The notes: generated from the letters alone by a model not told the origin. A stretch of DNA of 64,000 bases from Candidatus Latescibacterota bacterium (GCA_965262145.1 OZ253501.1:1695366-1759365), one strand, 5' to 3'; shown: positions 32,254-49,479, counted from the first letter of the stretch. Numbers and translations: made by a program.

Positions 32254-32279
32254 TGTATTTCAGTCATCTCCCGCGTCTC

Positions 32280-32762
32280 TCAGCTCAGCACTTGTGCCAG
32301 AGAGGTCCCACATTTAATTCTCTGAACGATTACTGATCTCCCGCGAAACTGGACTTTGTTGGACTTGTTTCTCAGTCGTCTTTGCTCAATTTTCGAAATC
32401 CTACCCGATGCAACAACCGGGGTAAAATTCGTATTTGCGTTATGTGGAATAATCTGATTGGCGACATCAGCACCAGCCTGAAGTTGCTTTGCGACCGCAC
32501 TGGCACTGACCCCACCTGATTTCAGTTCTATGGGTACGGTCCACGGACTTCCATCTGTATCGTCTAAATATCCGAGAAACAGGTAGTCGCATCGCGTTTC
32601 ATGCTGGCTCGGAGGTGAACTGGGAGAATCCATGTGGATCAGGACGAATTGACGCGAAACCCCCTTGAGAAAAATCGAACACTTTCCCGCTCTACACTGC
32701 TTTCTCAGGCATCGAGCATCCAATTTCCCTCGTACCGATTCCATCATCGTCATCTGGTTCAA
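32280..32762 (-). CDS. Small putative PD-(D/E)xK-like nuclease / Cys-cluster protein, partner of the AAA_21 ATPase
   Basis: 160 aa. 'LIHMD…CDYLFLGY…PIELKSG' fits a D…D…ExK arrangement. N-terminal CxxxxCxxxxC. ATGA overlap with the ATPase stop. Confidence 0.35.
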   Translation of the reverse strand: MNQMTMMESVRGKLDARCLRKQCRAGKCSIFLKGVSRQFVLIHMDSPSSPPSQHETRCDYLFLGYLDDTDGSPWTVPIELKSGGVSASAVAKQLQAGADVANQIIPHNANTNFTPVVASGRISKIEQRRLRNKSNKVQFRGRSVIVQRIKCGTSLAQVLS

Positions 32763-34291
32763 CTTTCCTCAATTCGGTTGGAGATTGTTGCCCAATCGTT
32801 GTGGGTACCAATCGCAATGTCGTCATAATCAGATCGGAATCCACCATAATCCACATCAAGGGGCATCTCCTTCACTATCGAACCCTTGGGGCGTTTTTTT
32901 GGCTCGAATAGCCAGGCGCCTACCTGGTCGGGACTGAGCGCGTAATCCGCCCCACCGACCCCTTTTCTCCGAGATTCAGGTAGATCGGATAGACGTACCA
33001 AGTTAGCGAGTTCTTCCAGTACCCATTCGCTATGTGTGGTAATGATGACCCGTATGCCGGAACGCACCGCCGCAGCGAGGTGCCGAATGAACGCGACCTG
33101 CATTCCGGGGTGTAAGTGGGATTCGGGTTCTTCGATGATCAGGACTTCCCCAGGGGAGACGACATGGCGCAGGTACAATACGACGGGCGCGAGTTCCGAT
33201 ACCATTGACGAAGTATTCATCAATTGCATGTCTTCTTTCCATCCTGTTGGTTGGTAGGAAAATACCGGGTAGCCAGTAGATGAATTTTCGATGCGAATTG
33301 ATCCACTCAGGATTTCTTTTTCGAGACGTTGGGTGAGATTCTCATTTAGCCTTTTCTTTTTCCTTGCCAAATCGCCCAAGTCAAGGAGTTGTTCGATGAA
33401 GTCGGCGAGAACGCCAGACAACTCAGGTAATGCTCGTTCGGGGCGAAGACCCGCACGCGACGCACCTTGGATCAAAGAACCTACGACGACTTTGTGCGCG
33501 TGCATGACGCCCGCGCGGTCTGCGGGGAGATAATAGGCAGGCCGACTCATTGGATTCGCGAAGTAAGAAACGACGTTACCAAAAAGGTTATCTATCAATG
33601 CAGCCGCCGCCAAAAACCTTCTTTCTCTACTATCTGGCCATTTTGGTTCGAAATTTTTTATTCGGGATGTGATTTGGATATACTCCTCAATGGCGCCTTT
33701 TCCGATCTGCAAAGGTGCTGTGTCGGGAATTGAAGCGATGAAAGCCTTTTTTGTAATATTGAATTTATACAATGAACTGTTGTTGTACCTCGCTTCTGAT
33801 GAGCCTGGCGTTTTTGAAAGTAGAGCGACCTTCGCGCTTTCCTTATTTGCATGGCGAATAAGCTTTCTGGTCTCGTCAATACCAAAACACCGCATTATTT
33901 CAGGGGCGAGATCATCGCCGAGGAGAACATCACTGAGCATAGGACGGATCAGCGATGCAATTACGTCTGGTACAGGAAAATCCTCTGACGAACCCTTTAT
34001 TTTCATTTGCGAAACGATTTGGTCCGCTCCGTCAATCAAACGCGCGATATTTTCCTCGGATATCGCCTGCTCGTATAATAAACCTCTACGAGAAGAAAAA
34101 TAAGGACGTCTTGTTGTCCTGCGGCTATTAAAAAACTTATGCAGCGCGTAGATCAAAATCGCCAGATAAGATTTTCCCGTATTGCTCGGTCCGACAAATA
34201 CGGTGAGTGGGCGCAGTTCGATTTCTGCACTATAAATCGGTCCGAAATCCCTGACCGATAGCATCAGATTTCTGTTTTCTGATGTCGCCAT
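32759..34291 (-). CDS. AAA_15/AAA_21 (OLD/ABC-like) ATPase of abortive-infection-type two-gene modules
   Basis: Walker A 'GPSNTGKSYL'. Walker B / H-loop 'VLIIEEPESHLHP' … 'ITTHS'. ATG 34291 is preceded by AGGAGG. Confidence 0.75.
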   Translation of the reverse strand: MATSENRNLMLSVRDFGPIYSAEIELRPLTVFVGPSNTGKSYLAILIYALHKFFNSRRTTRRPYFSSRRGLLYEQAISEENIARLIDGADQIVSQMKIKGSSEDFPVPDVIASLIRPMLSDVLLGDDLAPEIMRCFGIDETRKLIRHANKESAKVALLSKTPGSSEARYNNSSLYKFNITKKAFIASIPDTAPLQIGKGAIEEYIQITSRIKNFEPKWPDSRERRFLAAAALIDNLFGNVVSYFANPMSRPAYYLPADRAGVMHAHKVVVGSLIQGASRAGLRPERALPELSGVLADFIEQLLDLGDLARKKKRLNENLTQRLEKEILSGSIRIENSSTGYPVFSYQPTGWKEDMQLMNTSSMVSELAPVVLYLRHVVSPGEVLIIEEPESHLHPGMQVAFIRHLAAAVRSGIRVIITTHSEWVLEELANLVRLSDLPESRRKGVGGADYALSPDQVGAWLFEPKKRPKGSIVKEMPLDVDYGGFRSDYDDIAIGTHNDWATISNRIEES

Positions 34292-34320
34292 TGTTGCCTC
34301 CTCTGAATATCCTGGATGGC

Positions 34321-35103
34321 TTATTGGGCAGGTGTACCTTTTTGGAGCAACGTTTTTAGATCGAAGTTGACAGATGAAACGCCCCAACCTGGTTCGGTGT
34401 CAAAGGGGTTGCGAATATAATAGGGGCCATCTACGGTGTCGTCTTCATCCACGAGTACAATCGCGAGTAAGAATTTGTTGGCTTGATTGAGTGCATAAAG
34501 GATTTCATTACGAGATATAGTCACGGTGGTTGCACCTTTCACACGGCCTTTCACTTCTATGTGTCGAACTTCGTTGGTTACTTCATCATCAACGGTGGTA
34601 TAAGATGTGATATCCCATCCGCATTTCTGTGCCGAAACATCTATGACGCGACATCCGCGTTGTTTTTCCACTTGAATTACAGTATCCATTGCAATGCGTT
34701 CAATACGCGCGCGTGCCTGTGCATCAACAGCAAAAGTGGATTTCCCTTCTTCTGGTAGTTCGCCGCGCAATTTGCGAAGTAAGCCCACGGGAACGACGAG
34801 CGCACCTCCAAGGGCAACGGGTGTCGCAGATGTGACGTGCCGCATGGCCTGGAGTTCCTTTTTTCGATTTTCCAAACGTCCTTCAAGATCGCTCACCATA
34901 CGTCTTGCTCTTTCGAGAGGGAGGCGCACGTCTTTACCCATTTCTGCGTCTTCTTTGAGTTTGAGCCAGCGGTCCGACAAAAATTCGATTTCTCTGGTCA
35001 AGCGTTCATGAACAGCGGCGAGGGTCTTATCTACCCCGAAAAATTCATAAAATCTGAGAAATTGGCGTAAATACTGGACTTCCCAGTTATTGCATCGAAA
35101 CAA
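34321..35103 (-). CDS. DUF3883-like restriction-endonuclease-fold domain protein (stand-alone), encoded in-frame downstream of the SNF2 helicase
   Basis: C-terminal '[19 protein letters not shown]…[11 protein letters not shown]…' is a PD-(D/E)xK-like core (D…E-V-K) typical of DUF3883. TTG start. Confidence 0.5.
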
Positions 35104-35157
35104 ATATTTTTGGCCTAAATTTCATAACCATTTGTAAAAAATAAAATTATGGAAATT

Positions 35158-37986
35158 TTAAGCAAATTCATGAATTAGTCGGGCTACATGTTCAATCCGT
35201 CGTTGGGCTACTTCTCCATAATGTTCGGGCACCAGTGTTTCGGCGGCTAATGCCAATGCGCGTTGTTCATGATCTGTACAAATCCACGGTTCAGCGAGCA
35301 CATCTTTGAGCAAGTCGCGGTCACCATCTGAAATGGGTTCTAAATCGAGATGTGGTGCCCATCCTGCAAAAGCAGCAGAACCGTCGGGCGCAACACGTAC
35401 AAATTGTAAGCGTTTAGACAATGTCCTGTCAACATCTCCTTTGATTTCATGTGTGAGTAGAAAAAGCAAATGGGGTTCTATGCCTTCATCGGTGGGATCG
35501 ACGAGCACTGTACCTTGCCGTAGCAAATTGCCGTGACGCTCCAACAATACATCGCTGGCAGCCAACATCAACGGATGGCCGGGGTGCAACATCGCCGCGA
35601 AAGGCGCATTGGGCTTATCAACGAGACGAACAGCCTCTTTAGTAAAGCAGACTCGTTCGTATTTTTTCAGTACGGGCGCTATATCGCGACGGTTACGACC
35701 CGTTATCATTCGGTCTCGATCCCGAATTGCAACAGGAACATGTGTAATTTCAAAACGGGCAGCTTCCCGTTGATAAATAACGCCTCCTAAGGACTCAAAA
35801 GCTTTTAAGAAAAAGGAACGCACAAAATAGGGCTGAAGTCGTCTGGCCTCGGCTTTTTCCATTTCTTCTTTGACCGCAAAGAGGCGTTCGGGATGCATTG
35901 TTTCTTTTGCAAGTGCGTTGCGGTGGAGAATAGCGAGTATGTGTTCGCGGTCAAAGGCGTGATCGACCTTTTGATTCAAGCTTGCCCGGATTTCGGGCTG
36001 ATCGCCATATCTGATCGCATTAAGCAAAAGGTCTTTCAGGCTAACGCCTTCAAATACTTCGCCCAAAATGTCAAATACCCGACCTTGTAGAGCCGAACTC
36101 TCAACTTCCAGTTTTTGCAAAAGCCGGTGATACACATCGCCTTCACGGGTCTCTCTGGCTACCAGATTCCAAAGATGACATACATCTTGTTGTCCAATGC
36201 GATGTATGCGCCCAAAACGCTGTTCCAGACGGTTGGGATTCCACGGCAAATCGTAATTCACCATCAGATTGGCATTCTGAAGGTTCACGCCTTCTCCGGC
36301 GGCATCTGTTGCAACGAGGATACGCACTTCGGGGTCGGAGCGGAACCGAGCCTGGACGCGCAAACGCTCGTCGTGTTGAATACCACCGTGAATGGTGACG
36401 ACTGAATTGGGATTCCCCAGCACACCTGCAATTTTATTTTGCAGATAGTTGATGGTATCGCGGTGCTCAGAAAAAACGATCAGCTTGCGCAAATTTCCAT
36501 CTGTATCGCGTATAGCCTGGTCCTGCTGCAAAATGCGCGAAAGCTCGTCCCATTTGCGATCTCGCTCGGAATGCACAACTGCTTCGGCCTGATTTTCCAG
36601 TTTTTTTAAAATATCTATTTCTTGCGCCAATTCTGTAACTGTCCGTGCAGCAGTCGCCTGATCTACAAGTGTCTCTTCCAGATTTTCTTGCTCTTCGGCA
36701 TTGAGTTCATCGTCGTCTTCGGGAATGTCCGCAAGAAGCTCAGCAAGATTTTTTGGCTTGTGCATACCCAATTTTTCTTCGCGCAAACGGCTTTCCAATC
36801 GTTCTTTTCTGCGCTTAAGCGACTGGAAAATTGCTTCGGGACTCGAGGCGAGACGGCGTTGTAATATTGTTAATGCAAATCCAACTGAGCCTTTGCGTTT
36901 GCTATCGAGTTGATCTGCCTTGCCCATTTCAGTTTGCACATAGTGTGTCACTGCCTCGTAAAGCGTGGCCTCAATATCCGAGAGTGTATAATTTACCGTA
37001 TATGCTTTGCGTTCGGGAAATAACGGTGTGCCATCAAACTTAAACATTTCCTCTTTGACCATTCGGCGCATCAAATCCGAGTAATCGACTTTGTGAACTC
37101 CATCTCGAAATTTACCATAAAATCGGTCTGAATCCAGCAATGAGAGGAAAAGCTGAAAATCTTCTTCTTTGCCGTTGTGGGGCGTTGCCGTTAGGAATAG
37201 AAGATGCCGTGTGTGCTCACCTACTTTTTCCGCTAAAAGAAAGCGTTTTGTGCGTTCAATTTCGCGTCCATAAAAATGTGCCGAAAGTTTATGCGCTTCA
37301 TCAAAGACTACCAGATCCCAGGGTTCAAGACACAGTTTTTGTTGATAGTCTTCATTGCGTGCCATCTGGTCGAGCCGGACAATGAGATGATCGTGGACTT
37401 CAAATGGGTTGCGGCCAGGAGAAGTGGCTTCGAGTTCTTTTGAAAAAATGCGAAATTCCAGACCGAATTTTTCATACAACTCATCGCGCCACTGTTCAAC
37501 GAGATTCCCGGGTGCTACAATTAGAATACGGCGTGCATCTGCACGCATAAGCAATTCGCGGATGTAGAGGCCCGCCATAATGGTCTTCCCCGCACCGGGA
37601 TCGTCAGCCAGAATATAGCGCAGGGGTTGCCGGGGTAGCAGGGACTCATAAACTGCTGTTATCTGATGTGGAAGTGGCTCCACATTTGACGTGTGGACAG
37701 CCATCATCGGATCAAAGAGAAAAGCCAGATCAATACGTTTGGCTTCGACCGCGAGTTTAAAGGCTTCGCCATCCCCATCAAATGACCATGGACGCTCCTG
37801 TGTGGCAAGCGCAATATTTTCCTCATCCGCTCGATTCAGCAAGCGTTCTTTGAGCGTGCCATCGGGTGTTTTGTAGATAAGCGTTACAGAATCTTCAGTA
37901 ATGGGTATTACCGCGACGACAGAGACAACACTTGACGGTTCAATACCCACAAGGGAGTTACCCACAGATAAGTCTTCGATTCGCAT
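35158..37986 (-). CDS. SNF2-family helicase of the DUF499/DUF1156 defence system
   Basis: Motif I 'DDPGAGKT', motif II 'VVFDEAHKL', motif VI '[11 protein letters not shown]'. Start chosen at MRIEDLSV (ATG 37986). The ORF stays open up to 38094. Confidence 0.8.
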
Positions 37987-38126
37987 TAAAATACCTTTAT
38001 TAACAAATTCTATAGCAATCAGCGCATAGGCGTAGCTACGCCACAACGATAGGAATGACAACAAAAAAACTTTCTGGATCGCGGCTAAAACCATGCCGCG
38101 ATGACGGCTCTACAGCGCATGATTCG

Positions 38127-39815
38127 CTAACCGCTTTCGCTATGGCCCGTGAGGCGTATATCTTCCACCAGCATTTGCACGTTGGTTCTGCCTTGCCAGG
38201 TATTGGCCTGTAGTGCAAAGGCGAGATCGACGCGGTCGCCCAGTGATAATTCGTAAACCCGTTCGCCCTGGCGAAACCAGATTGCATCGCACAGATCAGC
38301 ACCTGTATCCACGCTGAGTTTCAGATGCGCCCCGCGGCTTATGGCGCGCGCATCTGCAATTCGGCAATTGCGGGCTATAAAACGCGGCAACGCGTTCTTT
38401 GCACCAAAAGGTGCCAATTTGTCCAGGGCGTCAACTGTCGTCAGAGATATATCGGATGGTTTAAGTGCCACATCGACTTCTAATTGGGGCGTCAGTGCTT
38501 CCTCTGATAGCCGCGCTTGAGCATCTGCGATCAACCGGTCTTGAAATTCGAGATAATTTTCAGCGGGGACTGAAAATCCGGCGGCATCGGCGTGTCCACC
38601 AAATTCGGTGAGCAAATCTGAGACGCGGAAAATCGCCTCGACGATATTGTATCCACCTGTTGTGCGCGCAGAACCCGTATAGATGCCATTTTTTCGAAAG
38701 TTGGTACACACCAGCGCTGGGCGCGAAAATTTTTCGACCAATCGCCCGGCGATCAGCCCGACCACACCCAGATGCCAGTCTTCACCACGCACCACCAGAA
38801 TGCGATATTGATCCAACCAGTTATCCTCTACCATGCGTTCTGCTTCGGCTATACCGTCGTTTTGCAGAGCCTGTCTTTCGCCATTTAGACCGTTTAATTC
38901 TTCGGCGAGTTTTGCCGCCTGTCCCCGGTTTTGACAGCGCAACAAATCGAGTGCCAGATCGGCCGATGATAGGCGCCCGGCGCTGTTGATGCGCGGTCCC
39001 AGGAAGAATCCAATAGAGATCGTGTCAACGGGGCGGTTGGTCGTACCCGCGACGGCTTTGAGTGCCTGCAAGCCCGGTCGCTCGGTGGTATTGAGGACCT
39101 GCATCCCCTTTCGCGTAAGCAGGCGATTTTCTGCAACCATGGGGGCCATATCAGCCACAGTGCCCAATGCGACGAGATCCAAAAGCGAGTTCAAATATCG
39201 GCGGCGTTCTGAATTGGGCAGGAACTCGGATGCCAGAGCCTGTACTACCTTAAATGCCACCCCCACGGCAGCCAGTCCCTTGAAGGGATATTCGCAGTCT
39301 GCGCGATTGGGATTCACCAGTGCCAGGGCGTCTGGCAATTTGTCTTGTGGATGGTGATGGTCAATGACTACCACATCAATTCCGGCGTTATTGGCAGTGT
39401 CAACAGCCTCAAAAGATGAAATACCATTGTCGGCAGTTACAATGAGTTGTGCTCCCCTGTTGAGTGCCCTCGTCACACCCGGCGGTTTCATGCCATACCC
39501 ATCTCGGAACCGGTCGGGCAACAAAAATGTGGCATCGGCACCCACCATATCAAAAAAATCGAGCAAAACAGCGGTGCTCGTGACGCCATCTACATCGTAA
39601 TCGCCAAAAACCACAATGCGCTCTTTATTGTGAATGGCTTCCGAAATGCGTTCAACTATGCGGTGCATGTCTTTCATTAAATAGGGGTCATTCAAAATAT
39701 CGGGAGAATCGGCCAAATCCTCTATTTTCAGTGAACGGTTTGCGAGAATGACATCGGCAATAGAATGATAATCGCCCTTATGGCGTATGTTCCATATCGG
39801 GTATTTAGGCTCCAT
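38127..39815 (-). CDS. recJ: Single-stranded-DNA-specific exonuclease RecJ
   Basis: DHH motifs 'VFGDYDVDGVTS', 'VIDHHHP'. DHHA1 region 'GGHADAAG'. Confidence 0.85.
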   Translation of the reverse strand: MEPKYPIWNIRHKGDYHSIADVILANRSLKIEDLADSPDILNDPYLMKDMHRIVERISEAIHNKERIVVFGDYDVDGVTSTAVLLDFFDMVGADATFLLPDRFRDGYGMKPPGVTRALNRGAQLIVTADNGISSFEAVDTANNAGIDVVVIDHHHPQDKLPDALALVNPNRADCEYPFKGLAAVGVAFKVVQALASEFLPNSERRRYLNSLLDLVALGTVADMAPMVAENRLLTRKGMQVLNTTERPGLQALKAVAGTTNRPVDTISIGFFLGPRINSAGRLSSADLALDLLRCQNRGQAAKLAEELNGLNGERQALQNDGIAEAERMVEDNWLDQYRILVVRGEDWHLGVVGLIAGRLVEKFSRPALVCTNFRKNGIYTGSARTTGGYNIVEAIFRVSDLLTEFGGHADAAGFSVPAENYLEFQDRLIADAQARLSEEALTPQLEVDVALKPSDISLTTVDALDKLAPFGAKNALPRFIARNCRIADARAISRGAHLKLSVDTGADLCDAIWFRQGERVYELSLGDRVDLAFALQANTWQGRTNVQMLVEDIRLTGHSESG

Positions 39816-39979
39816 AAAATCTCCAGAGTGGTTGATTATAGTGAGTATATGCGATCTGTGCTTGACTTGAAGTCAATTTGAACGTTAATTTTTTGAAACC
39901 AATATTTCACTTGGGAATCTCATAGGCTGAACGGTGGATCAATTTTACACCTTCTGCTAACCGCTTTCAGGAGTTTAAA

Positions 39980-40375
39980 ATGTCAGAATATTTCAATACA
40001 GTCAAATCTTATCTTCAAGACCTCAATCTCGCGGTTGACGAGGAAGATACCGCTGAAGAACTCGTTGTGGTGAGTGACGAAGATCGCGGTATCAATCACC
40101 TCATTGTCGATTGTGAAGATCCCATCCTCATTATTGAGCAGGCCATTCTGCCCATTCCCAACGTTCCTGGCGACCTGTACAAAAGGTTGCTCGAAATGAA
40201 TCGCACACTTGTTCACGGGGCGTTTGCCCTCGATGAGGAGATCGGTACGGTTCTTTTTCGCGATACCTTGCGCCTCGATACCCTCGACCGATCTGAGCTT
40301 GAAGGCTCGATTACCGCGCTCGAACTCGCCCTGGCCGAAAATGCCGCAGAATTACTCGAATATAGCCATCAGTAG
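39980..40375 (+). CDS. YbjN-like (putative sensory-transduction/chaperone-fold) protein, PspA-associated
   Basis: 131 aa, acidic, YbjN-like length and pattern. Family call by gestalt and context only. Confidence 0.45.
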   Translation: MSEYFNTVKSYLQDLNLAVDEEDTAEELVVVSDEDRGINHLIVDCEDPILIIEQAILPIPNVPGDLYKRLLEMNRTLVHGAFALDEEIGTVLFRDTLRLDTLDRSELEGSITALELALAENAAELLEYSHQ

Positions 40376-40424
40376 CCAGTTGTACTACGTTAGACCGCTG
40401 ACCACTTTCTTAAAGGAGTATCTT

Positions 40425-41129
40425 ATGAGCATCTTTCAACGTCTCTTCAATGTGGGCAAGTCCGAAGTCAATGCTGCCATTGACAAATTTGAAGATCCGA
40501 TAAAAATGACCGAACAGGGTATCCGAGACCTGAAAAATGACCTCAATAGCGCGATGACCAGCCTGGCTGAGGTCAAAGGGCAGGCCATTCGATTGCGAAA
40601 GCAGGCGGAAGACAACAAAAAGGCATCTGCTGATTGGGAGCGAAAGGCCATGATTTTGCTCCAAAAATCCCAAAGCGGCGATCTGGATGCTGGGGAAGCC
40701 GATCGGTTAGCAGCGGAAGCTCTCAGCCGCAAATCAGAAGCCGACAGCCGTATCTCTCAGTTTGATCAGGATGCCCAGATGCAGGAAGATATGGCCGCTA
40801 AGCTTCAAAGCCAGGTGGAGAAACTCAAATCTACTGTTGCAAGACACGAAAATGAACTCATTTCATTGCGTGCGCGTGCAAAAACAGCCGCTGCGACAAA
40901 AAAAATCAACAAGCAACTCGCCAAGGTCGATTCGTCTGGTACGATCTCTATGCTCGAGCGCATGAAAGAGCGGGTTGAAGAAGACGAATCGCTCTCGCAG
41001 GCTTATGGTGAAATGGCCGATGAATCCAAGAGCGTTGATGAGGAAATTGACGCGGCGCTGAGTACTTCATCAAGTGGCACAGATCAACGCCTTGCCGAAC
41101 TCAAAGCAAAGATGGGGATGAATTCGTAA
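40425..41129 (+). CDS. pspA: PspA/IM30 (phage-shock protein A / Vipp1) family protein
   Basis: N-terminus 'MSIFQRLFNVGKSEVNAAIDKFEDPIKMTEQGIRDL' is canonical PspA. Coiled coil throughout. RBS AAAGGAG. Confidence 0.85.
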   Translation: MSIFQRLFNVGKSEVNAAIDKFEDPIKMTEQGIRDLKNDLNSAMTSLAEVKGQAIRLRKQAEDNKKASADWERKAMILLQKSQSGDLDAGEADRLAAEALSRKSEADSRISQFDQDAQMQEDMAAKLQSQVEKLKSTVARHENELISLRARAKTAAATKKINKQLAKVDSSGTISMLERMKERVEEDESLSQAYGEMADESKSVDEEIDAALSTSSSGTDQRLAELKAKMGMNS

Positions 41130-41216
41130 GTGATGGATTGGCTCTGGGTGTGCCTGTGAGTGAGAGACTCGCGCACCCGGATGAGATTTTTACTCGCTGC
41201 GTTGCAGGGAGAGAAA

Positions 41217-41756
41217 ATGAATTGGAATCCGTTTAAAAAAAACAAAGAAGAACCCGAAGCTCTCGATCCCCTGAATGTTACGCTGTCCGATCTCAAGTTG
41301 GGGTATGTCCTCGACTACGATCTCAAAACATGGCAGGTCACGGCGCAGCATTATTACGATTACGAAGGTGATCGCGTGGATGAATGGGAACTCTCCTGCG
41401 GCGATGATGTGGCATATCTCGAGCGGGCAGAAGACGATGATATCACCTGGGCATTGACGCACAAAATTCGCCTTTCCGATATTGAGGGCAATATCCGTGC
41501 GCATATGAGCAACTACGATGATCCTCCAGATGAAGTCACTTGCAATGGTGTTATTTACTACGGGGAATCATCAGCCGTTGGATCTTATTACAAAGATGGC
41601 GAGGGAGAGGGGCAGGAGTTTGTCATCTGGAATTATCTCGATGAGTCGGGAAAGCACACTTTGTCTCTTGAGCAATGGGCAGAAGATGCTTATGATGCCT
41701 CAGTGGGTGAGGTCGTCGAAGAATATCAATTTAGCAGTATCCTGCCAGTCGCGTAA
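41217..41756 (+). CDS. DUF4178-domain protein (PspA-associated, B. subtilis YdjH-like)
   Basis: 179 aa. 'LKLGYVLDYDLKTWQVTA…YEWELS…' resembles DUF4178. [10 protein letters not shown]. Context is downstream of pspA. Confidence 0.5.
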   Translation: MNWNPFKKNKEEPEALDPLNVTLSDLKLGYVLDYDLKTWQVTAQHYYDYEGDRVDEWELSCGDDVAYLERAEDDDITWALTHKIRLSDIEGNIRAHMSNYDDPPDEVTCNGVIYYGESSAVGSYYKDGEGEGQEFVIWNYLDESGKHTLSLEQWAEDAYDASVGEVVEEYQFSSILPVA

Positions 41757-41761
41757 TACCT

Positions 41762-43333
41762 CTATTCAACTCCCCATTCCGATTTTCGATAGTATCGATC
41801 TACTGTCGGTTCCATTTCTGTGCTGACATCAATCGCGTGTTTTTCTTCAAACATGCCCTTCCAGAAGTGCAACATTCCCCGCATCGTTTCCGCATTCAAA
41901 AATTGCGTTTCAATATCCTCAAAAGTGAGTTGCCGCATTCGGCGACTCAGATCCTCTTCGCGCATTCCCTGTGTTTTCATCCCCAGTACCCATCCCCAAT
42001 CGCCCATCGTTGGTATATAGGTGTGATAGGGTATTGTCGAAAAGCCAGCGTCTGCCATCGTGCGCTCAATACAGAGAAAAGCAAGACGCGCGTTAAAGGG
42101 ACTCGACGCCTGGGTTACCAGCACGCCATCGGGTGTTAGGTGACGCGCACACAAGCGATAAAATTCCCGCGAATACAATCTGGCGAGGTCTGGTCCTTTG
42201 GGATCGGGTAAGTCGATGATGATGATATTGAACAACGCATCTGAACGCGCCAGAAATGCGCCCGCATCGCCGATTACCACATTTACACGCGGGTCGTCCA
42301 GTGCCCGCGCATTCGCTTCCACAAAAACCGGGTGTGTTCGCGCCAGATCGATTATCGCTTCATCTAAATCTACAAGCGCAATCGCTTTCACATCTGCATA
42401 TTTCGCGACTTCGCGCACAGCCAGTCCATCCCCTCCGCCTAAAATGAGTACGTTATTCCGCGATCCCGATAGTTTCATGGCCGGATGTACCAGCGATTCG
42501 TGATAGCGTTCTTCGTCATAGGTGCTGAATTGCACGTTGCCATTTAAGTGCAGCCAGTGGTAGCCTTTCCATTCTGTTATGACAATGCGTTGATAAACGG
42601 TTTGATCTTGATAGACCACGCGATCGCGATACCGACTTTGCTCGCCCCATATTACAATGGGACGGATATAAATTCCCAGTACCAGAAGGCCCGCGCCCAG
42701 AATCCAGAATGCCGTCAATAGCCGCCGGCGACGCGCCAATAAGTGTCGATATTGCCACAGTAATACCGATGCCACGATAAAGTTAATCGCGCCCAATACC
42801 AGTGGTGTGTACGTCAGACCCAATTTTGGCAATAAAAAAAAGGCGAACAATAGTCCGCCGATCAATGCGCCAAAATAGTCTTTTTCCATCACTGAGGCGA
42901 TATTGGTGCTCAAATCCTGGTACGCTTCGTTCATGCGCGCTACCAGCGGAATTTCCATGCCGATTAGCACGCCGATTGCAAAGGCATAGCCATAGATAAA
43001 AACGCCTGCCGACAACACAAATGCCGATCCAAAATACGCCGCAACCGCACAGGTGACGCACAGAGCCGAGAGATAAAATTCGATTGCGATAAAGCGATCC
43101 AGCAATCGATCTGTCAACAATCGGCTCCACCGGCTGCCCAGGCCCATGGCAAATAACATCAGCGACATGAGCATCGCCCACTGCAATGTCGTATTGCCCA
43201 ATAGATAGCTCGCCAGTGTTGATAGCGTAAATTCCGCTACTATGCCCGAGCATCCCGTGGCGAATATACAGGCTTTTAAGAGATAGCTTTGACGCATACC
43301 AAAATAATAAAAATAACTCGGAGGGCTGAACAC
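41762..43333 (-). CDS. Membrane-anchored polyamine aminopropyltransferase (spermidine synthase fused to N-terminal polytopic membrane domain)
   Basis: ~7 TM N-terminal domain, then SpeE motifs 'VLILGGGDGLAVREV' and 'IIIDLPDP'. Confidence 0.8.
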   Translation of the reverse strand: MFSPPSYFYYFGMRQSYLLKACIFATGCSGIVAEFTLSTLASYLLGNTTLQWAMLMSLMLFAMGLGSRWSRLLTDRLLDRFIAIEFYLSALCVTCAVAAYFGSAFVLSAGVFIYGYAFAIGVLIGMEIPLVARMNEAYQDLSTNIASVMEKDYFGALIGGLLFAFFLLPKLGLTYTPLVLGAINFIVASVLLWQYRHLLARRRRLLTAFWILGAGLLVLGIYIRPIVIWGEQSRYRDRVVYQDQTVYQRIVITEWKGYHWLHLNGNVQFSTYDEERYHESLVHPAMKLSGSRNNVLILGGGDGLAVREVAKYADVKAIALVDLDEAIIDLARTHPVFVEANARALDDPRVNVVIGDAGAFLARSDALFNIIIIDLPDPKGPDLARLYSREFYRLCARHLTPDGVLVTQASSPFNARLAFLCIERTMADAGFSTIPYHTYIPTMGDWGWVLGMKTQGMREEDLSRRMRQLTFEDIETQFLNAETMRGMLHFWKGMFEEKHAIDVSTEMEPTVDRYYRKSEWGVE

Positions 43334-43420
43334 CCGCCGAGTTGGAGAGATTTAATCAGGGAATTTCACAGTGCGATAGCAGTGTCTTTTGGGGTTTCGC
43401 CATCCACACAACTTCCCTTC

Positions 43421-44266
43421 TCACAAACTCCACACAATCAGGAACGACGCGCCGATATAAGATGTGGCTTCGATGAAGCCTGCGGCCAAATTGGGGTGTT
43501 CTTGATTGGCGATTTCATCGGTCAGTTTTTGTCCTGGCAAGAGAATCACATCGGAGATGAATCGGGCGATGGGTAGCAGTATTAATCCCGCGATTACTTC
43601 GATTGCAAAATCCTGTAGATTTACGGTCCATGAAATAAAATCACCCGCCGATGCGTGAAATACTATAATGCCAATGCCGACCAATGCGCCCGCAAAAGCG
43701 ACGCCTGCCGCGACATTGTCTTTTTCAATTTCGTCGTGAATACTATACGGGGTAATCCATTCGTACACCAGCCCGGCCAGTATCAGGGCGGCCTGGCCCA
43801 ATGCCCAGAAAATCACTGTTGTTACAATTCCGCCTATCTCACCGGATACCGCACCAAAAATCACTAATCCCGTTGCAATATACGACGCGGCGACTACAAC
43901 ACCTGTGCCCGCGTTTTGATCGTCAATCAATTCATCCCGCACTTTGAATCCGTGTAAGATCAGCCCGTCGTTGACCAGACGCGATAGATTCATCAACAGG
44001 ATAGAAAGCACTCCGTAAATGCCGATGTCGATCAAATCGTTTTCCAATCCTTGGGATGGCCCCGACAAGGTGCCGCCAATAGCCATTACCAATCCAAAAT
44101 AATATCCCGCCATGGCCACACCTAGTGCTGCGTTGTCTTTTTCGACCAGTTCATCCCGCACGCTGTAACTCGATGTCGTCAAATCCTTGACCAATTTGCC
44201 GAGCCAGAACAATATAAACGCGCTAATGAGATAAATACCCGTTGCAATCAAATCTTGTCCAATCAT
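43421..44266 (-). CDS. DUF350-repeat membrane protein (E. coli YjfL-like)
   Basis: Three or four repeats of 'DEL…(K)DN.A.G…AG…G' with flanking TM helices. Confidence 0.65.
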   Translation of the reverse strand: MIGQDLIATGIYLISAFILFWLGKLVKDLTTSSYSVRDELVEKDNAALGVAMAGYYFGLVMAIGGTLSGPSQGLENDLIDIGIYGVLSILLMNLSRLVNDGLILHGFKVRDELIDDQNAGTGVVVAASYIATGLVIFGAVSGEIGGIVTTVIFWALGQAALILAGLVYEWITPYSIHDEIEKDNVAAGVAFAGALVGIGIIVFHASAGDFISWTVNLQDFAIEVIAGLILLPIARFISDVILLPGQKLTDEIANQEHPNLAAGFIEATSYIGASFLIVWSL

Positions 44267-44994
44267 TTTCCAAACCCTCCAAAACTACGGCTGCCAAATC
44301 CAGATCGGCTGCGGCTTGTCGAACGCGAGCTTCCAAATCCGCTGCGACTCTGGCTCGTGCGACTTTGCACTTTTTGTGTGAACGATTGTCTCTTTTGCGC
44401 TATGTTTGCCTGGCGTCGCTGGAATGTCGATGGTTTTTGTTTTTGCGTGACAGATCCCTGCGTGCCGTACTCCCGATTGCGCCCATAATACGGGCGTCGA
44501 TCCTGGCGATAAGACCGATAATCGTCGTAATCGTAGCGACTCATGCCGAACCCGCCGCCCCAACCGAGCAAACTTCGCATCATCGCGTATTGCCCGTAAA
44601 ACTCCCAGAACGATGTGCCTCCGCGATTCGTCCATTGTCCGTATTGTGGATTGCCCACATAGTGGTATCCGGGCGGATGTGGCGTATTGTTGACGCCATC
44701 TTGCTTCGATTTGGCAATCAGCGCCATTCCCAAAAACGGTTCGTATTTTCGATAGATGGACTCCGATACTTCTATCCAGTCCGATTGTACCTTTTTTTCG
44801 CCCTGTGTAATTAAATACCGATGATAATACGAGGTAAAAACAGTGCCTTCTTCACGTATATCATCCAACACAATCATATACGCCGGTGCCGAGGCCAGCG
44901 ATTTCTGCATCTCAACTACGGGATCGCGTTTACCGCCGCACCCGCACAACAACAGAAGGCCGATCAACAAGACCGGCAATCGTTCTCGTGTCAT
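44263..44994 (-). CDS. Lipoprotein with Gly/Ser/Arg-rich C-terminal tail (possibly YjfM/DUF1190-like)
   Basis: Lipobox 'LLLCGCGG'. 4-bp overlap with the DUF350 gene. Confidence 0.5.
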   Translation of the reverse strand: MTRERLPVLLIGLLLLCGCGGKRDPVVEMQKSLASAPAYMIVLDDIREEGTVFTSYYHRYLITQGEKKVQSDWIEVSESIYRKYEPFLGMALIAKSKQDGVNNTPHPPGYHYVGNPQYGQWTNRGGTSFWEFYGQYAMMRSLLGWGGGFGMSRYDYDDYRSYRQDRRPYYGRNREYGTQGSVTQKQKPSTFQRRQANIAQKRQSFTQKVQSRTSQSRSGFGSSRSTSRSRSGFGSRSFGGFGK

Positions 44995-45118
44995 AATTTC
45001 CTCCAGATATGGGTGGTTGCAACCATAGCTTTTTCCTTGAAGTAAGATACGTCAATATCGGTTTTGTGCAATATGGAACTGGTCTGGGGGATGGGATTCA
45101 ACGGCCAGTTGTACATCA

Positions 45119-46582
45119 TTATCTCGGATCTTCGGGCAATTGCGAAAAATCGAATGCATTTACTTCGTCGATGTTTGGCGCGAATGGGGGGATGGCGTGG
45201 GGGATATGGCTGTGCCCACAGCGTGCGATGAGTGCTCTGGCACGCGCTTGCCGTTCGGCTTGTTTCAAAATATCATCGGCAGACCAGCGTGCAAAAATTT
45301 TTGCGAGGCCCGATTGGATCGCGTCTTGATATCGGGGGTCATCGCTCAGGTCGCGGCGTTCTTCGGGGTCTTCGTCGATGTTGAATAGCTGGCAGGTGTC
45401 AAGCTCGGAGTAATAGTTCAATTTCCACGGCCCCGTGCGGATCATGCATGCGGGTTGGTCGCCCAGCAAGCCGATATATTCTGCAAAGACTTCATTGGGC
45501 CAGTCCGATGGCGGGGGACCTTTGAGGAATGAGGCGAAGCTTTTGCCCGAGACATCGGGCATGGGGTCTGCACCTGCAATGTCCAGAGCCGTGGGGCCGA
45601 CGTCGATGAGGCTGACGATGGCGTCTTCTGTGTGGTTTTCGTGAAAATGGCCCGGCCATGAACTGATTAAGGGTATGCCCACAGAGCCTTCGTAAAAGCT
45701 GCTTTTCCACCACATGCCGTGTTCGTGGGCCATATCGCCGTGGTCCGAGGTGTAGATGATGACGGTATTATCCGCATTAGAGGAGGATTGTACGGTGTCA
45801 CTGATCTGGCCGATGTATCGGTCGAGTTCGGTTGTCAAGCCGTAATAAGCGGCTAACCCGCGGCGGTTCTGCTCTGGGGTGATGTCGTCAACGCCGCGTC
45901 GCTCGCGCCATTTTTTCATGGCTGGATGCAGGGCATTTAAGTATTCGGGCGATTCGGGTTCGAGGGGTGGGATTTGCGCCATGTAATATTCAAAGTCTTC
46001 TCTGCCGCAGATAAGGGGATTGTGCGGGTTCATGTAACCGACGACGAGGGCATAAGGTCTGTCGCTATTTTGCCGATCGGCGATGAATTTGCAGGCTGTT
46101 TCGGTGACGGATTTGTCAAAGTAGCGATAGCCGGTTTCGCCATAGCCAGATACTTGAACGCCGTATTTGGTTTGTCCTGTTGTGCGGTTGTATCCCGCGC
46201 CGAGAATTTCTGCGGATAGCCCACCGCAGTCGGCGTGGATGCGTTTTTCAAAGCCATGAAATTGATCGGGATTTCTAAAGTGCATGCGACCACATAGCAC
46301 GGCTTCGTAGCCGGCCGCGCCAAATGCATGGGCAAATGTGGGGGTGTCAAAAGACAGGCTGCCGCTGTTGTCATAAACGCCCACGTCGCTGGGGTACTGC
46401 GCCGACATAAAGCCCGATCGCGAAGGCGCGCAGAGGGGATAGGGACAATACGCATTGCGAAACCGGGTCCCGCGACGCGCAAGCGTATCTAAATTTGGCG
46501 TTTGCACAATGGGATTTCCCGCACATCCCATTACATGGGGATTGTGCTGATCGGAGATGATGATGATAATGTTAGGAGTCAT
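45119..46582 (-). CDS. Formylglycine-dependent sulfatase
   Basis: Signature 'CAPSRSGFMS' (C-x-P-S-R). 487 aa. Confidence 0.85.
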   Translation of the reverse strand: MTPNIIIIISDQHNPHVMGCAGNPIVQTPNLDTLARRGTRFRNAYCPYPLCAPSRSGFMSAQYPSDVGVYDNSGSLSFDTPTFAHAFGAAGYEAVLCGRMHFRNPDQFHGFEKRIHADCGGLSAEILGAGYNRTTGQTKYGVQVSGYGETGYRYFDKSVTETACKFIADRQNSDRPYALVVGYMNPHNPLICGREDFEYYMAQIPPLEPESPEYLNALHPAMKKWRERRGVDDITPEQNRRGLAAYYGLTTELDRYIGQISDTVQSSSNADNTVIIYTSDHGDMAHEHGMWWKSSFYEGSVGIPLISSWPGHFHENHTEDAIVSLIDVGPTALDIAGADPMPDVSGKSFASFLKGPPPSDWPNEVFAEYIGLLGDQPACMIRTGPWKLNYYSELDTCQLFNIDEDPEERRDLSDDPRYQDAIQSGLAKIFARWSADDILKQAERQARARALIARCGHSHIPHAIPPFAPNIDEVNAFDFSQLPEDPR

Positions 46583-46645
46583 AAGGAGAAGTGTGAAGTG
46601 TGGAGGGTGGAGGGTGAAGGAACAGGCATAAGCACTAACAGTGGA

Positions 46646-47353
46646 TTATTTTCCATCATTCCCGTTGTACAGACCTTCTCCGCGTACCAACAGGCGTTTG
46701 GGGTTGGGGATGTCCATGAGTTCGTCAACGCTGTGATAGCCAACTGTCATGCTCATGCGCGTGTCGTCGGTGTGGTTTTCGCCTGCGCCGTGAACGACCA
46801 TGCTGTCGATTGCGAGCATCCCTCCTGCGGGCATGGGTACGGGGAGTGCCTGACCCAGAATATCGCTTGCCCAGTCTGCATCGTGAATAGATGTGGAAAC
46901 GCCGGGGAAGTGATGTGATCCGGGTACAATGCGGGTGCATCCATTTTCGAGGGTGGTTTCTTCGAGGTAAAAGATGATGGTGTAGATGTTGCGCGTCCAC
47001 TGCCTGACGTCGCGATGAAGATACGCGCCTTTGTTGTCATCCGCCGTGCGCAAGGTGGCGTGGTTATGGCGGTTGGTGAGGATTTCGATATTGGGTCCCA
47101 AAAGGGATTCGAGTGGGTCGAGTGTGAATGGGTGCGTGACTGCTTCTCGAAAGATCGGCACGCGATCCATAAGGGCAGAGATACGCACGGCACGGCCATC
47201 TTTATTGCGTGAGATGGGTTCGACTTCGCAGTCGATATCTTCCGTAATAGCGGTCTTCAGGTTTTCAACCATTTCTTCTGGCAAGCGGTCTGGAAGGCAG
47301 AGAAAACCGTTGTTTCGAAAGAGCTGGATTTGTCGCATGGTGAGTGAGGGCAT
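46646..47353 (-). CDS. Phytanoyl-CoA dioxygenase (PhyH) family Fe(II)/2-oxoglutarate oxygenase
   Basis: PhyH-like double-stranded-helix-fold pattern ('…HRD…', '…VHGAGEN…'). Confidence 0.7.
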   Translation of the reverse strand: MPSLTMRQIQLFRNNGFLCLPDRLPEEMVENLKTAITEDIDCEVEPISRNKDGRAVRISALMDRVPIFREAVTHPFTLDPLESLLGPNIEILTNRHNHATLRTADDNKGAYLHRDVRQWTRNIYTIIFYLEETTLENGCTRIVPGSHHFPGVSTSIHDADWASDILGQALPVPMPAGGMLAIDSMVVHGAGENHTDDTRMSMTVGYHSVDELMDIPNPKRLLVRGEGLYNGNDGK

Positions 47354-47356
47354 GTC

Positions 47357-48106
47357 CTACTCCTGAATGGGAAGAGCATAGGGATGTGGGTGTCCTGTAT
47401 AGGCTTTTTCACCGCGCACGAGAATTTTTTCCGGGTCGTTTTTGATCACATCGTGGGCGTCGTGGGCGCGATAGGCAACCGTCATGCTGCGGCGAGAATG
47501 ATCTGAACGATTTGTGTCCGACCCGTGATAACAGCAGTCGTTAAAGAGGATTACACCGCCGCGCGGCATGGGGATTGGCACTGCGCGGTAATAGTTGTCG
47601 CTGTGGTAAAAGTTGTCTCTGTGTTTCTGTGGTCGGCGCGGGTTGAGAAATGGACGGTTGTGGCTGCCGGGCACGATGCGTATACAGCCGTTTTCAACGG
47701 TTGATTCTTCGAGGTATATCAAGCCGGTGATCAGCGTGTGGTCATAGGGTTCTTCACCTGCGTGCCAGGGGACGGGATAAGACCCGGATGGGCGCACCAT
47801 GACGTGATTGTGTTTGTTGGTGAGTACTTCGATGTTTGGACCGATGATGCCTTCGAGGGCGTTGAGGATGATGGGGTGAGACGCGGCTTCGAAATAGACG
47901 GGGTCTCGCAAAAAAATTTTTGAAAGACGGCGAACATTTTCTGACGTCCGATCCCCTTTTTCTTCCCAAACAATGGGTTCTCGCATGCCTGAAATCTGCC
48001 GGGAGGTGACTTCATTTAGGCGATCGACCAGATCGCCGGGCAGAGTCTCGCGAACTTTGTAAAATCCAGTGGTTTTGAAATACCAGAGGTCTTCTTCTGT
48101 GATCAT
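47357..48106 (-). CDS. Phytanoyl-CoA dioxygenase (PhyH) family protein, paralogue of the adjacent gene
   Basis: Similar layout to 46646..47353 ('…WHAGEEP…', 'CYHGSDTNRSD'). Confidence 0.7.
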   Translation of the reverse strand: MITEEDLWYFKTTGFYKVRETLPGDLVDRLNEVTSRQISGMREPIVWEEKGDRTSENVRRLSKIFLRDPVYFEAASHPIILNALEGIIGPNIEVLTNKHNHVMVRPSGSYPVPWHAGEEPYDHTLITGLIYLEESTVENGCIRIVPGSHNRPFLNPRRPQKHRDNFYHSDNYYRAVPIPMPRGGVILFNDCCYHGSDTNRSDHSRRSMTVAYRAHDAHDVIKNDPEKILVRGEKAYTGHPHPYALPIQE

Positions 48107-48138
48107 GTTGAGATATCCTTATGAGTGAGAATCCCCTA

Positions 48139-49479
48139 TTACCTCGGGTCCATTACTCGCCCGACAAACAGGGTGGTGTTGGTCGCTATGTCTCGGATGA
48201 GGAAGATAAATGGCCGATCGACCGCGACCACAATTGGTGGTGGGGGAACGGATTTTACGCCTACGACCACGGCAGTGGCCGCTGCGGCTTCTGTGCCATT
48301 CTCATTTACCAGGACGAATGCTTTGTGAAAGGCATCTGAAATGGAGAGGTCTTTTCTTCCATCCATGCCCGAGAAGTCAGCTAACTGCTGGTCAAAGGCG
48401 TCTGACATTCCCAGCTTTTTGAGGGTTGCGCCCAATTTGAATTGGGCCTCAAACTCGAATGAAGGCATGGTGAGTTCTACGTGCTCGCGGCTCAGGTCTC
48501 CCGAAATTTGGCTGACGAGTTCGGCGTTTAGCGTATTTTCGAACGTATCAAAATTACCCTTGTCGGGAAGCAGGATGATCATGGACATTTCACTGCCATC
48601 GTAGAGCAACTCAACGGCCTGATATCCCGTGCTACTCGCATAGCCGAATGACTCGGTCTGTCGCATCATCGGTACTTTTATGCTGCTGCCATTTAGCAAG
48701 TGGAAGTCGCCTTCAGCAGTGGCTTTTTCGTCGAAGGTGTAGAGCCACGCCGCGTTGAAGTAGATGGCATTGGTGAGGACTAACCGGGTCAAGTTGTCGA
48801 TGGCACCGGAAGGTATCAGGTCTTTGATTTTCTCTTCGGTCTGCTGGGCGACCCAGTCGTTGATCGCGACTCGCGAGTTCTCGGGTGCTTCTGTGAAATT
48901 TGCTATTTTCATTCCAGCACCGTAATTCTCCGCCAGTTTGTCCAGGAAGTCCTGCAGGAAGTCATAGCCCTGTTGTCCCCAGATCGCATTGGCGATGTTC
49001 AATCGAAACCCCTTGCCATCTTTGCCACTGCTTTCTTCGCCGCGAGAGGCGAGTTGCAGATCGAGGGCGTTGAACGCGGGGTGCAATTTATCCTGGGGCA
49101 GGATGAAGTGTAGTGTGTTCGATATCTGGCGTTCGGTTTCGCCTCTGGCACCGGCATACGTCATGGCAAGTGCCAGTGAGATGCTGTAGGGCGAATAGAA
49201 CAGGTTTCCACTTTCTTCCTCACGCAATTTTTGATACAGGTCGAAAGCGAAGGCGTTATTTCCACGCACCAGGTCTGATAGTTCTGAATCTGTCGTTACT
49301 GGTACGGTTACTCGCGTCTTTTCTGATCGCACCTCTTCTGTCGCAGACGCAGATGGTGTCTCGGTCGGAGGTGGCGCCGTGGGCGAGATAGTCTCCGATG
49401 ATTTCTGACCGCATCCGATTAGTGCGGCTGATAGTATTACAGCGGGTAGCAAACGGTTGGCGAAGAGGGGAAATACCAT
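48139..49479 (-). CDS. Serpin (serine-protease inhibitor) lipoprotein
   Basis: Lipobox 'LIGCGQ'. Serpin core ('NAIYFNAAW', reactive-centre-loop region 'GTEAAAATAVVV', C-terminal 'FVGRVMDP'). Confidence 0.8.
   Translation of the reverse strand: MVFPLFANRLLPAVILSAALIGCGQKSSETISPTAPPPTETPSASATEEVRSEKTRVTVPVTTDSELSDLVRGNNAFAFDLYQKLREEESGNLFYSPYSISLALAMTYAGARGETERQISNTLHFILPQDKLHPAFNALDLQLASRGEESSGKDGKGFRLNIANAIWGQQGYDFLQDFLDKLAENYGAGMKIANFTEAPENSRVAINDWVAQQTEEKIKDLIPSGAIDNLTRLVLTNAIYFNAAWLYTFDEKATAEGDFHLLNGSSIKVPMMRQTESFGYASSTGYQAVELLYDGSEMSMIILLPDKGNFDTFENTLNAELVSQISGDLSREHVELTMPSFEFEAQFKLGATLKKLGMSDAFDQQLADFSGMDGRKDLSISDAFHKAFVLVNENGTEAAAATAVVVGVKSVPPPPIVVAVDRPFIFLIRDIATNTTLFVGRVMDPR

Follow-up and report, generated by a model that had tools for sequence, protein, structure and literature searches.

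A convergent gene cluster for PspA and a membrane-anchored aminopropyltransferase in a Latescibacterota genome

We analysed 64,000 nucleotides of one strand from Candidatus Latescibacterota bacterium (GCA_965262145.1 OZ253501.1:1695366-1759365), hereafter the window, in which positions 39980-44994 carry genes for a chaperone-like protein, PspA and a DUF4178 protein, facing genes for a lipoprotein, a DUF350 membrane protein and a membrane-anchored SpeE enzyme. It is well supported that this cluster is a Latescibacterota copy, in convergent layout, of an operon family already described by comparative genomics (Ravi et al. 2024, mSystems 9:e00847-23, PMC11237479). The best overall explanation, to which we assign a probability of about 0.6, is that a member of this known family encodes a trans-membrane aminopropyl-transfer module coupled to PspA. 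Pfam and NCBIfam profile scans of the open reading frames (ORFs) in the window gave the following assignments, in which TM stands for transmembrane helix and pI for isoelectric point.

39980-40375, plus strand: CesT/Tir-type chaperone-like protein of the YbjN superfamily, 131 residues, pI 4.1; PF22550 (CesT_Tir_1) E 1e-46 over residues 1-130, YbjN PF10722 E 1e-8.
40425-41129, plus strand: PspA/IM30 (ESCRT-III-like), 234 residues, starting MSIFQRLF; PF04012 E 8e-45, 153.6 bits against a cut-off of 33.9.
41217-41756, plus strand: DUF4178 protein, 179 residues, pI 4.1, no signal peptide; PF13785 E 1e-18.
41762-43297, or to 43333 with an alternative GTG start, minus strand: membrane polyamine aminopropyltransferase (7TM-SpeE), 511 or 523 residues; PF01564 E 8e-43; NF002956.
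43421-44266, minus strand: YjfL-family membrane protein with two DUF350 units (8 TM), 281 residues; PF03994 E 3e-56 over two stretches.
44263-44994, minus strand: Ctha_1186-family lipoprotein, 243 residues, pI 9.9, lipobox L-C-G-C19, tail ending GFGK; no Pfam family.

These six ORFs form two convergent groups and lie where an earlier reading, made from the sequence alone (the sequence-only reading), had placed them. It had proposed YbjN-like, PspA and DUF4178 genes on the plus strand, each of which Pfam bears out, and a lipoprotein, DUF350 and membrane-SpeE operon converging on them, with which the ORFs and the Pfam and NCBIfam matches agree; all four of its domain assignments (PspA_IM30, DUF4178, DUF350, Spermine_synth) hold in Pfam. 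The gap between the CesT-like and PspA genes is 49 bp, and the stop codons of the DUF4178 and SpeE genes face each other 5 bp apart. The lipoprotein stop and the DUF350 start overlap (ATGA), which points to translational coupling. The PspA protein falls short of the equivalog thresholds of both E. coli PspA (TIGR02977, 65.8 bits against 242.95) and LiaH. The DUF4178 protein is predicted to be cytoplasmic, and sequence comparison found no relative in the PDB for the DUF4178 protein, the lipoprotein, the CesT-like protein or the DUF350 protein.

In its account of these operons, the paper of Ravi et al. gives a content of six to seven genes: a CesT/Tir gene with PspA, a 7TM-fused spermine/spermidine synthase, an 8TM YjfL/DUF350 protein, a Ctha_1186 lipoprotein and DUF4178, with an RHH regulator gene as an optional member (PMC11237479). 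The window holds a CesT-like gene upstream of PspA, a 7TM-Spermine_synth protein, an 8TM DUF350 protein, a Ctha_1186 lipoprotein and a DUF4178 protein; the single co-directional operon of that description is found in other phyla and not in the window. Because the lipoprotein directly matches Ctha_1186 of Chloroherpeton thalassium (E 2e-48, 41% identity, 98% coverage), the match to the operon family is itself direct. The SO_3765 operon of Shewanella oneidensis (AAN56744, AAN56746, AAN56747), given in the supplement as LipoSIG+Ctha_1186+Low-comp > YjfL-TM > SIG+TM+Spermine_synth > CesT_Tir/DUF2170 > PspA > DUF4178 > RHH, has all six components in common with the window. It is a single operon, whereas in the window the PspA half is inverted to give two convergent units, the cluster has no RHH ORF, and the chaperone-like protein matches PF22550/YbjN rather than DUF2170. 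The host also differs, being a member of the Latescibacterota, whereas the BacA paper, where it touches on these contexts, cites them as proteobacterial. The same account by Ravi et al. concludes that the membrane dynamics of PspA are linked either to polyamine levels or to the aminopropylation of different substrates (PMC11237479). It also notes the likeness to the E. coli yjf-type ATP-grasp operon, and finds polyamine genes repeatedly coupled to PspA-CesT/Tir. The proposal of the sequence-only reading that PspA is tied here to polyamine synthesis in a second, independent way was thus correct but had been published in that paper.

Conservation of the cluster was examined in loci found through the SpeE protein, taking one genome per species. 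SpeE has thousands of relatives, and we used the closest 80 of at least 587 matches (51-93% identity), a sample of the nearest relatives rather than of the whole SpeE family; the six window proteins were searched against the six-frame ORFs of these loci. The 80 loci come from at least nine phyla, the closest being metagenome-assembled genomes of Latescibacterota, and include Latescibacterota, Gemmatimonadota, Binatia, Acidobacteriota, Calditrichota, Cytophagia, Desulfobacterota and KSB1. Of the 70 loci having at least 2.5 kb of upstream sequence, 69 carried the genes for the lipoprotein and DUF350 directly 5' of SpeE, the sole exception being a Nitrospinota locus. Among loci flanked on each side by 6 kb or more, PspA (40/50), DUF4178 (41/50) and CesT (40/50) were encoded within 6-8 kb of SpeE, and the CesT-like gene lay directly 5' of PspA in every PspA-containing locus. 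The co-occurrence of DUF350 with membrane SpeE and the wider co-localisation described by the sequence-only reading are therefore kept in related genomes, and the DUF350 and DUF4178 assignments on which it depended are confirmed.

The gene linkage is not chance. That an unrelated convergent PspA unit and SpeE unit merely abut in this genome might be argued from the placement of the halves on opposite strands with no shared promoter, from the unrelated genes that relatives carry within the cluster, and from lineages with no PspA near the module. However, the association persists in 40/50 loci from at least seven phyla despite rearrangements and insertions, three phyla have all of the genes in one co-directional operon, the Shewanella operon has equal content in one operon, and DUF4178, which sits with PspA here, is fused to the lipoprotein elsewhere. 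Chance adjacency has next to no probability left and is refuted by the conservation data, the only rival explanation of which this can be said.

The convergent layout of the window recurs in Latescibacterota, Gemmatimonadota, Binatia, some Desulfobacterota and KSB1. Acidobacteriota, Calditrichota and Cytophagia have a single co-directional operon in the order DUF4178, lipoprotein, DUF350, SpeE, K+ channel, J-domain protein, CesT, PspA, and in Scalindua and many Desulfobacterales lipoprotein, DUF350 and SpeE occur alone in that order. The K+ channel between SpeE and CesT-PspA is RCK-gated (L061 9085-10804, L064 9549-10670, L073 6919-8470, L057 9531-11146) and is followed in L061, L073 and L057 by a small J-domain protein whose N-terminus is amphipathic. 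In the description by Ravi et al., only the ATP-grasp operon of E. coli type has a K+ channel (PMC11237479), listed there beside a glutathionylspermidine-synthetase-like ATP-grasp ligase, DUF350, DUF1190 and DUF2491. In Latescibacterota relatives, unrelated insertions separate DUF350 from SpeE or SpeE from DUF4178, yet the cluster stays linked (L014 6105-7888; L022 7028-7564 and 10037-10735; L023 4384-7978; L035 9745-12502; L039 3753-7956). The inserted genes include putative acyl-CoA synthetase, dehydrogenase and thiolase genes and a putative transposase, named from their translated sequence only, RraA-like genes recognised by Pfam, and ORFs of unknown type. One metagenomic locus from ENA (L001, 14.4 kb) encodes an identical PspA in the same CesT-PspA-DUF4178-SpeE arrangement, and has transposase genes (DDE_Tnp) between its recJ and helicase genes that the window does not have.

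A profile search of the lipoprotein family returned 1,064 representatives at 50% clustering, some of which are fusions of the components. In three proteins (P0300, P0316, P0364) a DUF4178 domain at the N-terminus is followed by a basic stretch, a single TM helix, a Ctha_1186 domain and a tail, an order that puts DUF4178 on the cytoplasmic side and Ctha_1186 on the periplasmic side. In a fourth, P0268, the Ctha_1186 lipoprotein is joined to a double DUF350 and its tail is lost, so that the lipoprotein meets DUF350 at its periplasmic N-terminus; the distribution of K/R over the DUF350 loops is independent evidence for an N-out topology, which fits this fusion. The DUF350 protein carries four repeated acidic loop motifs, RDE[LI]xxxxN. 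Members of about 450 residues (P0345, P0346, P0352, P0356 and others) have a signal-anchor helix and a helical region of about 230 residues in place of the lipobox, and locus L085 (4264-7991) belongs with these fusion-protein observations. The neighbourhoods of P0300, P0346 and Ctha_1186 contain DUF4178, lipoprotein, DUF350 and SpeE but lack PspA over the surrounding 4-8 kb, and in locus L097 PspA stands with DUF4178 and the lipoprotein although SpeE is absent. Together, the fusions, the linkage counts and the PspA-free neighbourhoods define a conserved core of DUF4178, Ctha_1186, DUF350 and 7TM-SpeE, to which PspA-CesT is a frequent accessory. The description of the locus as PspA-centred in the sequence-only reading is for this reason questionable: PspA is near in 40/50 loci, but the core occurs without it in Chloroherpeton, Scalindua and others.

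The SpeE protein exceeds the cut-off of the NCBIfam polyamine aminopropyltransferase model NF002956 (572.8 bits against 472). Its Spermine_synth domain spans residues 274-454 of the 523-residue ORF and is preceded by about seven hydrophobic helices (six to seven, residues 1-220), and relatives in the PDB cover residues 221-474 only. Its nearest relatives of solved structure include spermidine, thermospermine and triamine/agmatine aminopropyltransferases (E 1e-37 to 1e-20). The motifs for catalysis and for binding of decarboxylated S-adenosylmethionine (dcAdoMet), Y265-H-E, G287GGDG, D344-A and D362-L-P-D365-P, are invariant in 58 homologues and align to those of solved SpeE enzymes. Three acidic residues inside the TM helices (E22, E73, E115) are also invariant and would fit a cation- or polyamine-binding domain. 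Where the sequence-only reading saw a bona fide spermidine synthase with a 7-TM anchor, the catalytic motifs are intact and about seven hydrophobic helices precede the catalytic domain, but the acceptor cannot be read from the sequence.

These data bear on a simpler reading, in which SpeE would be a housekeeping spermidine, thermospermine or agmatine aminopropyltransferase whose neighbours would do no more than regulate free polyamine or make use of it, for instance exporting it to shield anionic lipids. The equivalog score, the solved relatives and the intact motifs are all as expected of such an enzyme. The window also contains a gene for S-methyl-5'-thioadenosine (MTA) phosphorylase, an enzyme that salvages MTA, the by-product of aminopropyl transfer; it lies at 16225-17118 on the minus strand, 25 kb from the cluster (TIGR01694, 293.9 bits against 274.85). 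Surface spermidine is described as protecting the Pseudomonas outer membrane (Johnson 2012, as cited in PMC11107197). Ordinary supply, however, needs neither a coupled lipoprotein and DUF350 (69/70) nor a DUF4178 partner, nor a conserved 7TM domain with buried acidic residues. Related MFS-SpdSyn fusions, moreover, reportedly failed to complement an E. coli speE mutant in work by Li and colleagues in 2019. We regard ordinary polyamine supply as a rather unlikely account of the cluster.

Under the explanation that we prefer, the cytoplasmic DUF4178 protein, the periplasmic lipoprotein, DUF350 and 7TM-SpeE would form one trans-membrane module. The SpeE domain would add an aminopropyl group from dcAdoMet to an amine at the cytoplasmic membrane, and the product could be either a free polyamine, passed to the envelope via the acidic domains of 7TM-SpeE or DUF350, or an amine bound to the membrane or to a protein; both kinds of product would alter the charge and stability of the envelope. 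The CesT-like partner would keep or deliver PspA, which would be recruited to the same membrane patch and would seal or remodel it under envelope stress. The ATGA overlap and the fusions speak for one physical unit, the invariant motifs and the MTA phosphorylase gene for an active enzyme, and the acidic residues of the TM helices and of the DUF350 loops for cation handling. Of this account, gene identities, linkage, fusions and motif integrity are established, and the acceptor, the topology, the inducing signal and any contact with PspA are inferred.

Several points weigh against this model, the first of which concerns membrane sidedness. Across the 58 SpeE homologues, K+R is concentrated at the N-terminus (1.8), in loop 2-3 (2.9), in loop 4-5 (2.8) and in loop 6-7 (3.4), with almost none in loops 1-2, 3-4 and 5-6. 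The positive-inside rule accordingly predicts a protein with its N-terminus inside, seven TM helices and its C-terminus outside, so that the catalytic domain would be periplasmic, on the lipoprotein's side and away from the cytoplasmic donor dcAdoMet. In the AlphaFold 2 model (pLDDT 86.7) a single helix runs through residues 133-182, but confidence is low at 127-160 and the invariant P157, G160 and P165 suggest a hairpin turn in this stretch, so that the model is ambiguous as to the helix count and hence the membrane side. In addition, PspA-CesT is missing near the module in 10/50 loci and in Chloroherpeton, which indicates that PspA is not obligatory. No speD was found among the approximately 45 window ORFs scanned, a set that does not take in every small ORF, and the sole polyamine-related match was the MTA phosphorylase. 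The halves are transcribed as two units that face each other, and comparison of their upstream regions showed no operator in common. A literature search turned up no experiment on any member of the operon. Finally, the MFS-SpdSyn fusions studied by Li and colleagues in 2019 are said to have made no spermidine.

The E. coli yjfIJKLMC cluster (and tolC-ygiBC) resembles the window in layout: a PspA-family protein follows a CesT-like protein, a DUF350 membrane protein is present, and a lipid- or TM-anchored periplasmic protein has a small domain and an S/R/G-rich tail in which a G[FY]G motif and the C-terminus are conserved features. The polyamine-conjugating enzyme is the last gene in yjf, as SpeE follows DUF350 and the lipoprotein here, so that the sequence-only reading was right to place the window enzyme in the position of YjfC. 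It had also equated DUF350 with YjfL, and the two are indeed relatives (blastp 7e-6, phmmer 1e-8), although YjfL has one DUF350 unit (4 TM) and the window protein two; similarity between the window PspA and YjfJ is weak (blastp E 1e-4). The enzymes themselves differ, YjfC being an ATP-grasp peptide-spermidine ligase and the window enzyme an aminopropyltransferase with no YjfC-like gene beside it. Where E. coli yjf has DUF2491, DUF1190 and DUF2170 the window has DUF4178, Ctha_1186 and PF22550, with no detectable similarity in any pair. DUF4178 was accordingly rejected as a relative of YjfK/DUF2491, as was the lipoprotein as a homologue of YjfM/DUF1190 (hhalign probability 0.7%; Pfam DUF1190 E 6.8, 7.4 bits against a cut-off of 22; no blastp match). 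The suggestion that the lipoprotein is possibly YjfM-like thus fails at the level of homology; the likeness is one of layout and tail composition alone, and the protein belongs to the Ctha_1186 family.

We next consider the ends of the lipoprotein. The lipobox Cys19 is invariant among homologues; in the window protein Gly rather than Asp stands at position +2 after it, and a predicted beta-rich core is followed by a Ser/Arg/Gly-rich tail. All 72 homologues from the genome loci end in -GK, as do 126 of the 148 best family representatives, most exceptions looking truncated. About ten of these 148 end instead in -GGRRR(R), a sub-family seen in P0274, P0277, P0280, P0358, P0359 and P0366 and in loci L088, L090, L092 and L097, where it is paired with DUF4178 and in one case also with PspA. 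RRR-ending lipoproteins with readable context have DUF4178 upstream and no adjoining DUF350/SpeE (4/4), their downstream genes being IgGFc-binding, a thiamine pyrophosphate enzyme, opposite-strand genes and MutS2-like, whereas those GK-ending ones that were reached by way of the lipoprotein are followed by DUF350 and SpeE (3/3). P0280, P0372 and P0374 had flanks too short for this comparison and were left out. The perfect 3-versus-4 split (p = 1/35) ties the terminal lysine to the DUF350/SpeE pair, in a small sample of 7 loci.

A lysine placed in this way could itself be the acceptor of SpeE. Its aminobutyl side chain is putrescine-like, and aminopropylation would yield a protein-borne spermidine-like group at the membrane surface, mirroring spermidine ligation by YjfC/YgiC to peptide C-termini beside lipoproteins ending ...WGG or ...MGG. 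The near-universal GK end, its split from the RRR variants and the positive-inside rule, which sets the SpeE domain on the lipoprotein's side, all favour this idea. So does the comparison with E. coli, in which RefSeq names YjfC and YgiC 'peptide--spermidine ligase' and the tails of YjfM (...RGHWGG) and YgiB (...SRSMGG) resemble the lipoprotein tail, a GG end being found in 34 of 41 full-length YjfM orthologues, all from Enterobacterales. Aminopropylation of other substrates is also mentioned in the operon account of Ravi et al. (PMC11237479). Against these points, the donor dcAdoMet is cytoplasmic and the lipoprotein tail periplasmic, the GK/RRR correlation comes from 7 loci and could equally reflect DUF350, and the YjfM comparison is limited to Enterobacterales; as ATP-grasp enzymes are also cytoplasmic, the E. 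coli analogy has a like topology problem. We know of no aminopropyltransferase that acts on a protein lysine. Modification of the terminal lysine is thus unlikely. We consider distinctly unlikely a broader version in which SpeE would modify the lipoprotein lysine or another membrane-bound amine to leave an anchored periplasmic polyamine, YjfC/YgiC would arrive at an equal end product through other chemistry on the GG ends of YjfM/YgiB, and DUF350 would serve as a shared platform with PspA as the repair arm.

The C-terminal lysine of E. coli Lpp is joined to meso-diaminopimelic acid by L,D-transpeptidases, and the window lipoprotein might likewise be a Braun-lipoprotein-like tether, cross-linked to peptidoglycan through its own terminal lysine, with the module sensing or adjusting envelope geometry and the link to SpeE secondary. 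The joint invariance of the lipobox Cys and the C-terminal Lys and the +2 Gly would suit such a protein. Its predicted core, however, is beta-rich and globular rather than a trimeric coiled coil, the fusions anchor the domain in the inner membrane by a TM helix or join it to DUF350 with the tail lost (P0268), and the association of GK with DUF350/SpeE is left unexplained, which makes a tether very unlikely. Neither the Gly-Lys end, the RRR variants without DUF350/SpeE, the fusions nor the C-out prediction for SpeE was found in the operon account of Ravi et al., and all four appear to be unreported.

Further systems share some of the parts of the cluster. The B. subtilis pspA-ydjGHI (samGHI) operon encodes PspA with membrane partners that recruit it; published accounts of the operon give these as YdjG (Zn-ribbon/NTF2-like plus TM), YdjH (TPM) and YdjI (band-7), domains absent from the window cluster, and describe no polyamine enzyme. 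The sequence-only reading had named DUF4178 as the partner in the ydjFGHI operon, and this fails on the published descriptions, which list none, as judged by those descriptions rather than by a sequence scan. Compared with the classical Psp system (E. coli pspFABCDE), the cluster is without PspB, PspC, a pspF gene, a sigma-54 site or an equivalog-level PspA score. The passages of Ravi et al. on related contexts include PspA-less variants with DUF4247, DUF2617 and DUF350 beside polyamine genes (for example CCP45394 and CCP45395). Such variants link DUF350 and a secreted protein or lipoprotein to polyamine enzymes without PspA, as do the Chloroherpeton, Scalindua and Desulfobacterales loci, though their accessory families differ from Ctha_1186 and DUF4178. 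We take CCP45394 and CCP45395 to be M. tuberculosis proteins beside the membrane SpeE Rv2601; a search of the literature on mycobacterial Rv2599-2601 found nothing functional on this SpeE cluster. Li and colleagues reportedly described, in 2019, clusters of an MFS-SpdSyn-like fusion with S-adenosylmethionine decarboxylase (AdoMetDC) and DUF350, and proposed an acceptor other than putrescine. The window SpeE differs in belonging to the 7TM PRK03612 family, barely matching the MFS_SpdSyn model (41 bits against a cut-off of 40), and in having no adjoining AdoMetDC gene.

Two non-coding elements accompany the cluster.

39861-39925, plus strand: conserved block upstream of the CesT-like gene, CTTGAC..TTTGAAC..TTTTTGAAACCAATATTTC..TTGGGAATCTCATA, from an alignment of 16 Latescibacterota upstream regions.
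43301-43343, minus strand: GC-rich terminator-like hairpin with a T-run, AACTCGGCGGG...CCCTCCGAGTT, ending 3 nt before the SpeE ATG.

The upstream block contains repeated TTTGAA(A)C elements and a TTGACTT-G-AAGTCAA palindrome, is partly kept in the distant loci L015 and L020, and is probably a promoter or operator of the CesT-PspA-DUF4178 unit. The hairpin, for which ViennaRNA gives a stem of 10-12 bp, is kept in Latescibacterota relatives (L003-L011, L016 and L019) with a variable loop and inner stem. It is probably an intra-operon attenuator or intrinsic terminator between DUF350 and SpeE, and would as such cause SpeE to be expressed less than the lipoprotein and DUF350. An Rfam scan of 39000-46000 gave no match, the hairpin included. 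No sigma-54 consensus was found in either upstream region, its window-wide count equalling chance, and sigma-70 promoter and terminator counts over 39700-45300 likewise equalled chance.

Elsewhere in the window, an Hma-type anti-phage defence system lies beside recJ at 24486-38094 on the minus strand. It comprises HmaC (24486-27314, 1402 bits), the DNA-adenine methylase HmaB (27327-30269, 1682 bits) and an HmaA SNF2 helicase divided between the ORFs 35158-38094 (model positions 1-946) and 34321-35103 (943-1170); between the HmaB and HmaA ORFs are an AAA_15/PD-T4-4_A-like ATPase (32759-34387) and two 235-residue ORFs of unknown type (30716-32127). The close relative L002 does not have the Hma island beside recJ. 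On the lipoprotein side, 45119-49479 holds a sulfatase, two PhyH-family dioxygenases and then a putative serpin, called from its translation only. The sulfatase and PhyH genes are syntenic with the 86%-identity relative L002 (3485-6468), and no functional tie to the cluster was seen.

The locus is a well-preserved example, from a phylum without a cultured model, of a cluster known solely from comparative genomics, and this type of cluster is widespread outside Proteobacteria. It represents one of several repeated genomic links between PspA, a protein of ESCRT-III-like membrane repair, and polyamine chemistry. The Gly-Lys terminus, the fusions and the topology conflict of SpeE offer experimental handles. 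If protein aminopropylation is true, it would be a new protein modification; otherwise, the cluster would represent a membrane-coupled polyamine supply for envelope stress.

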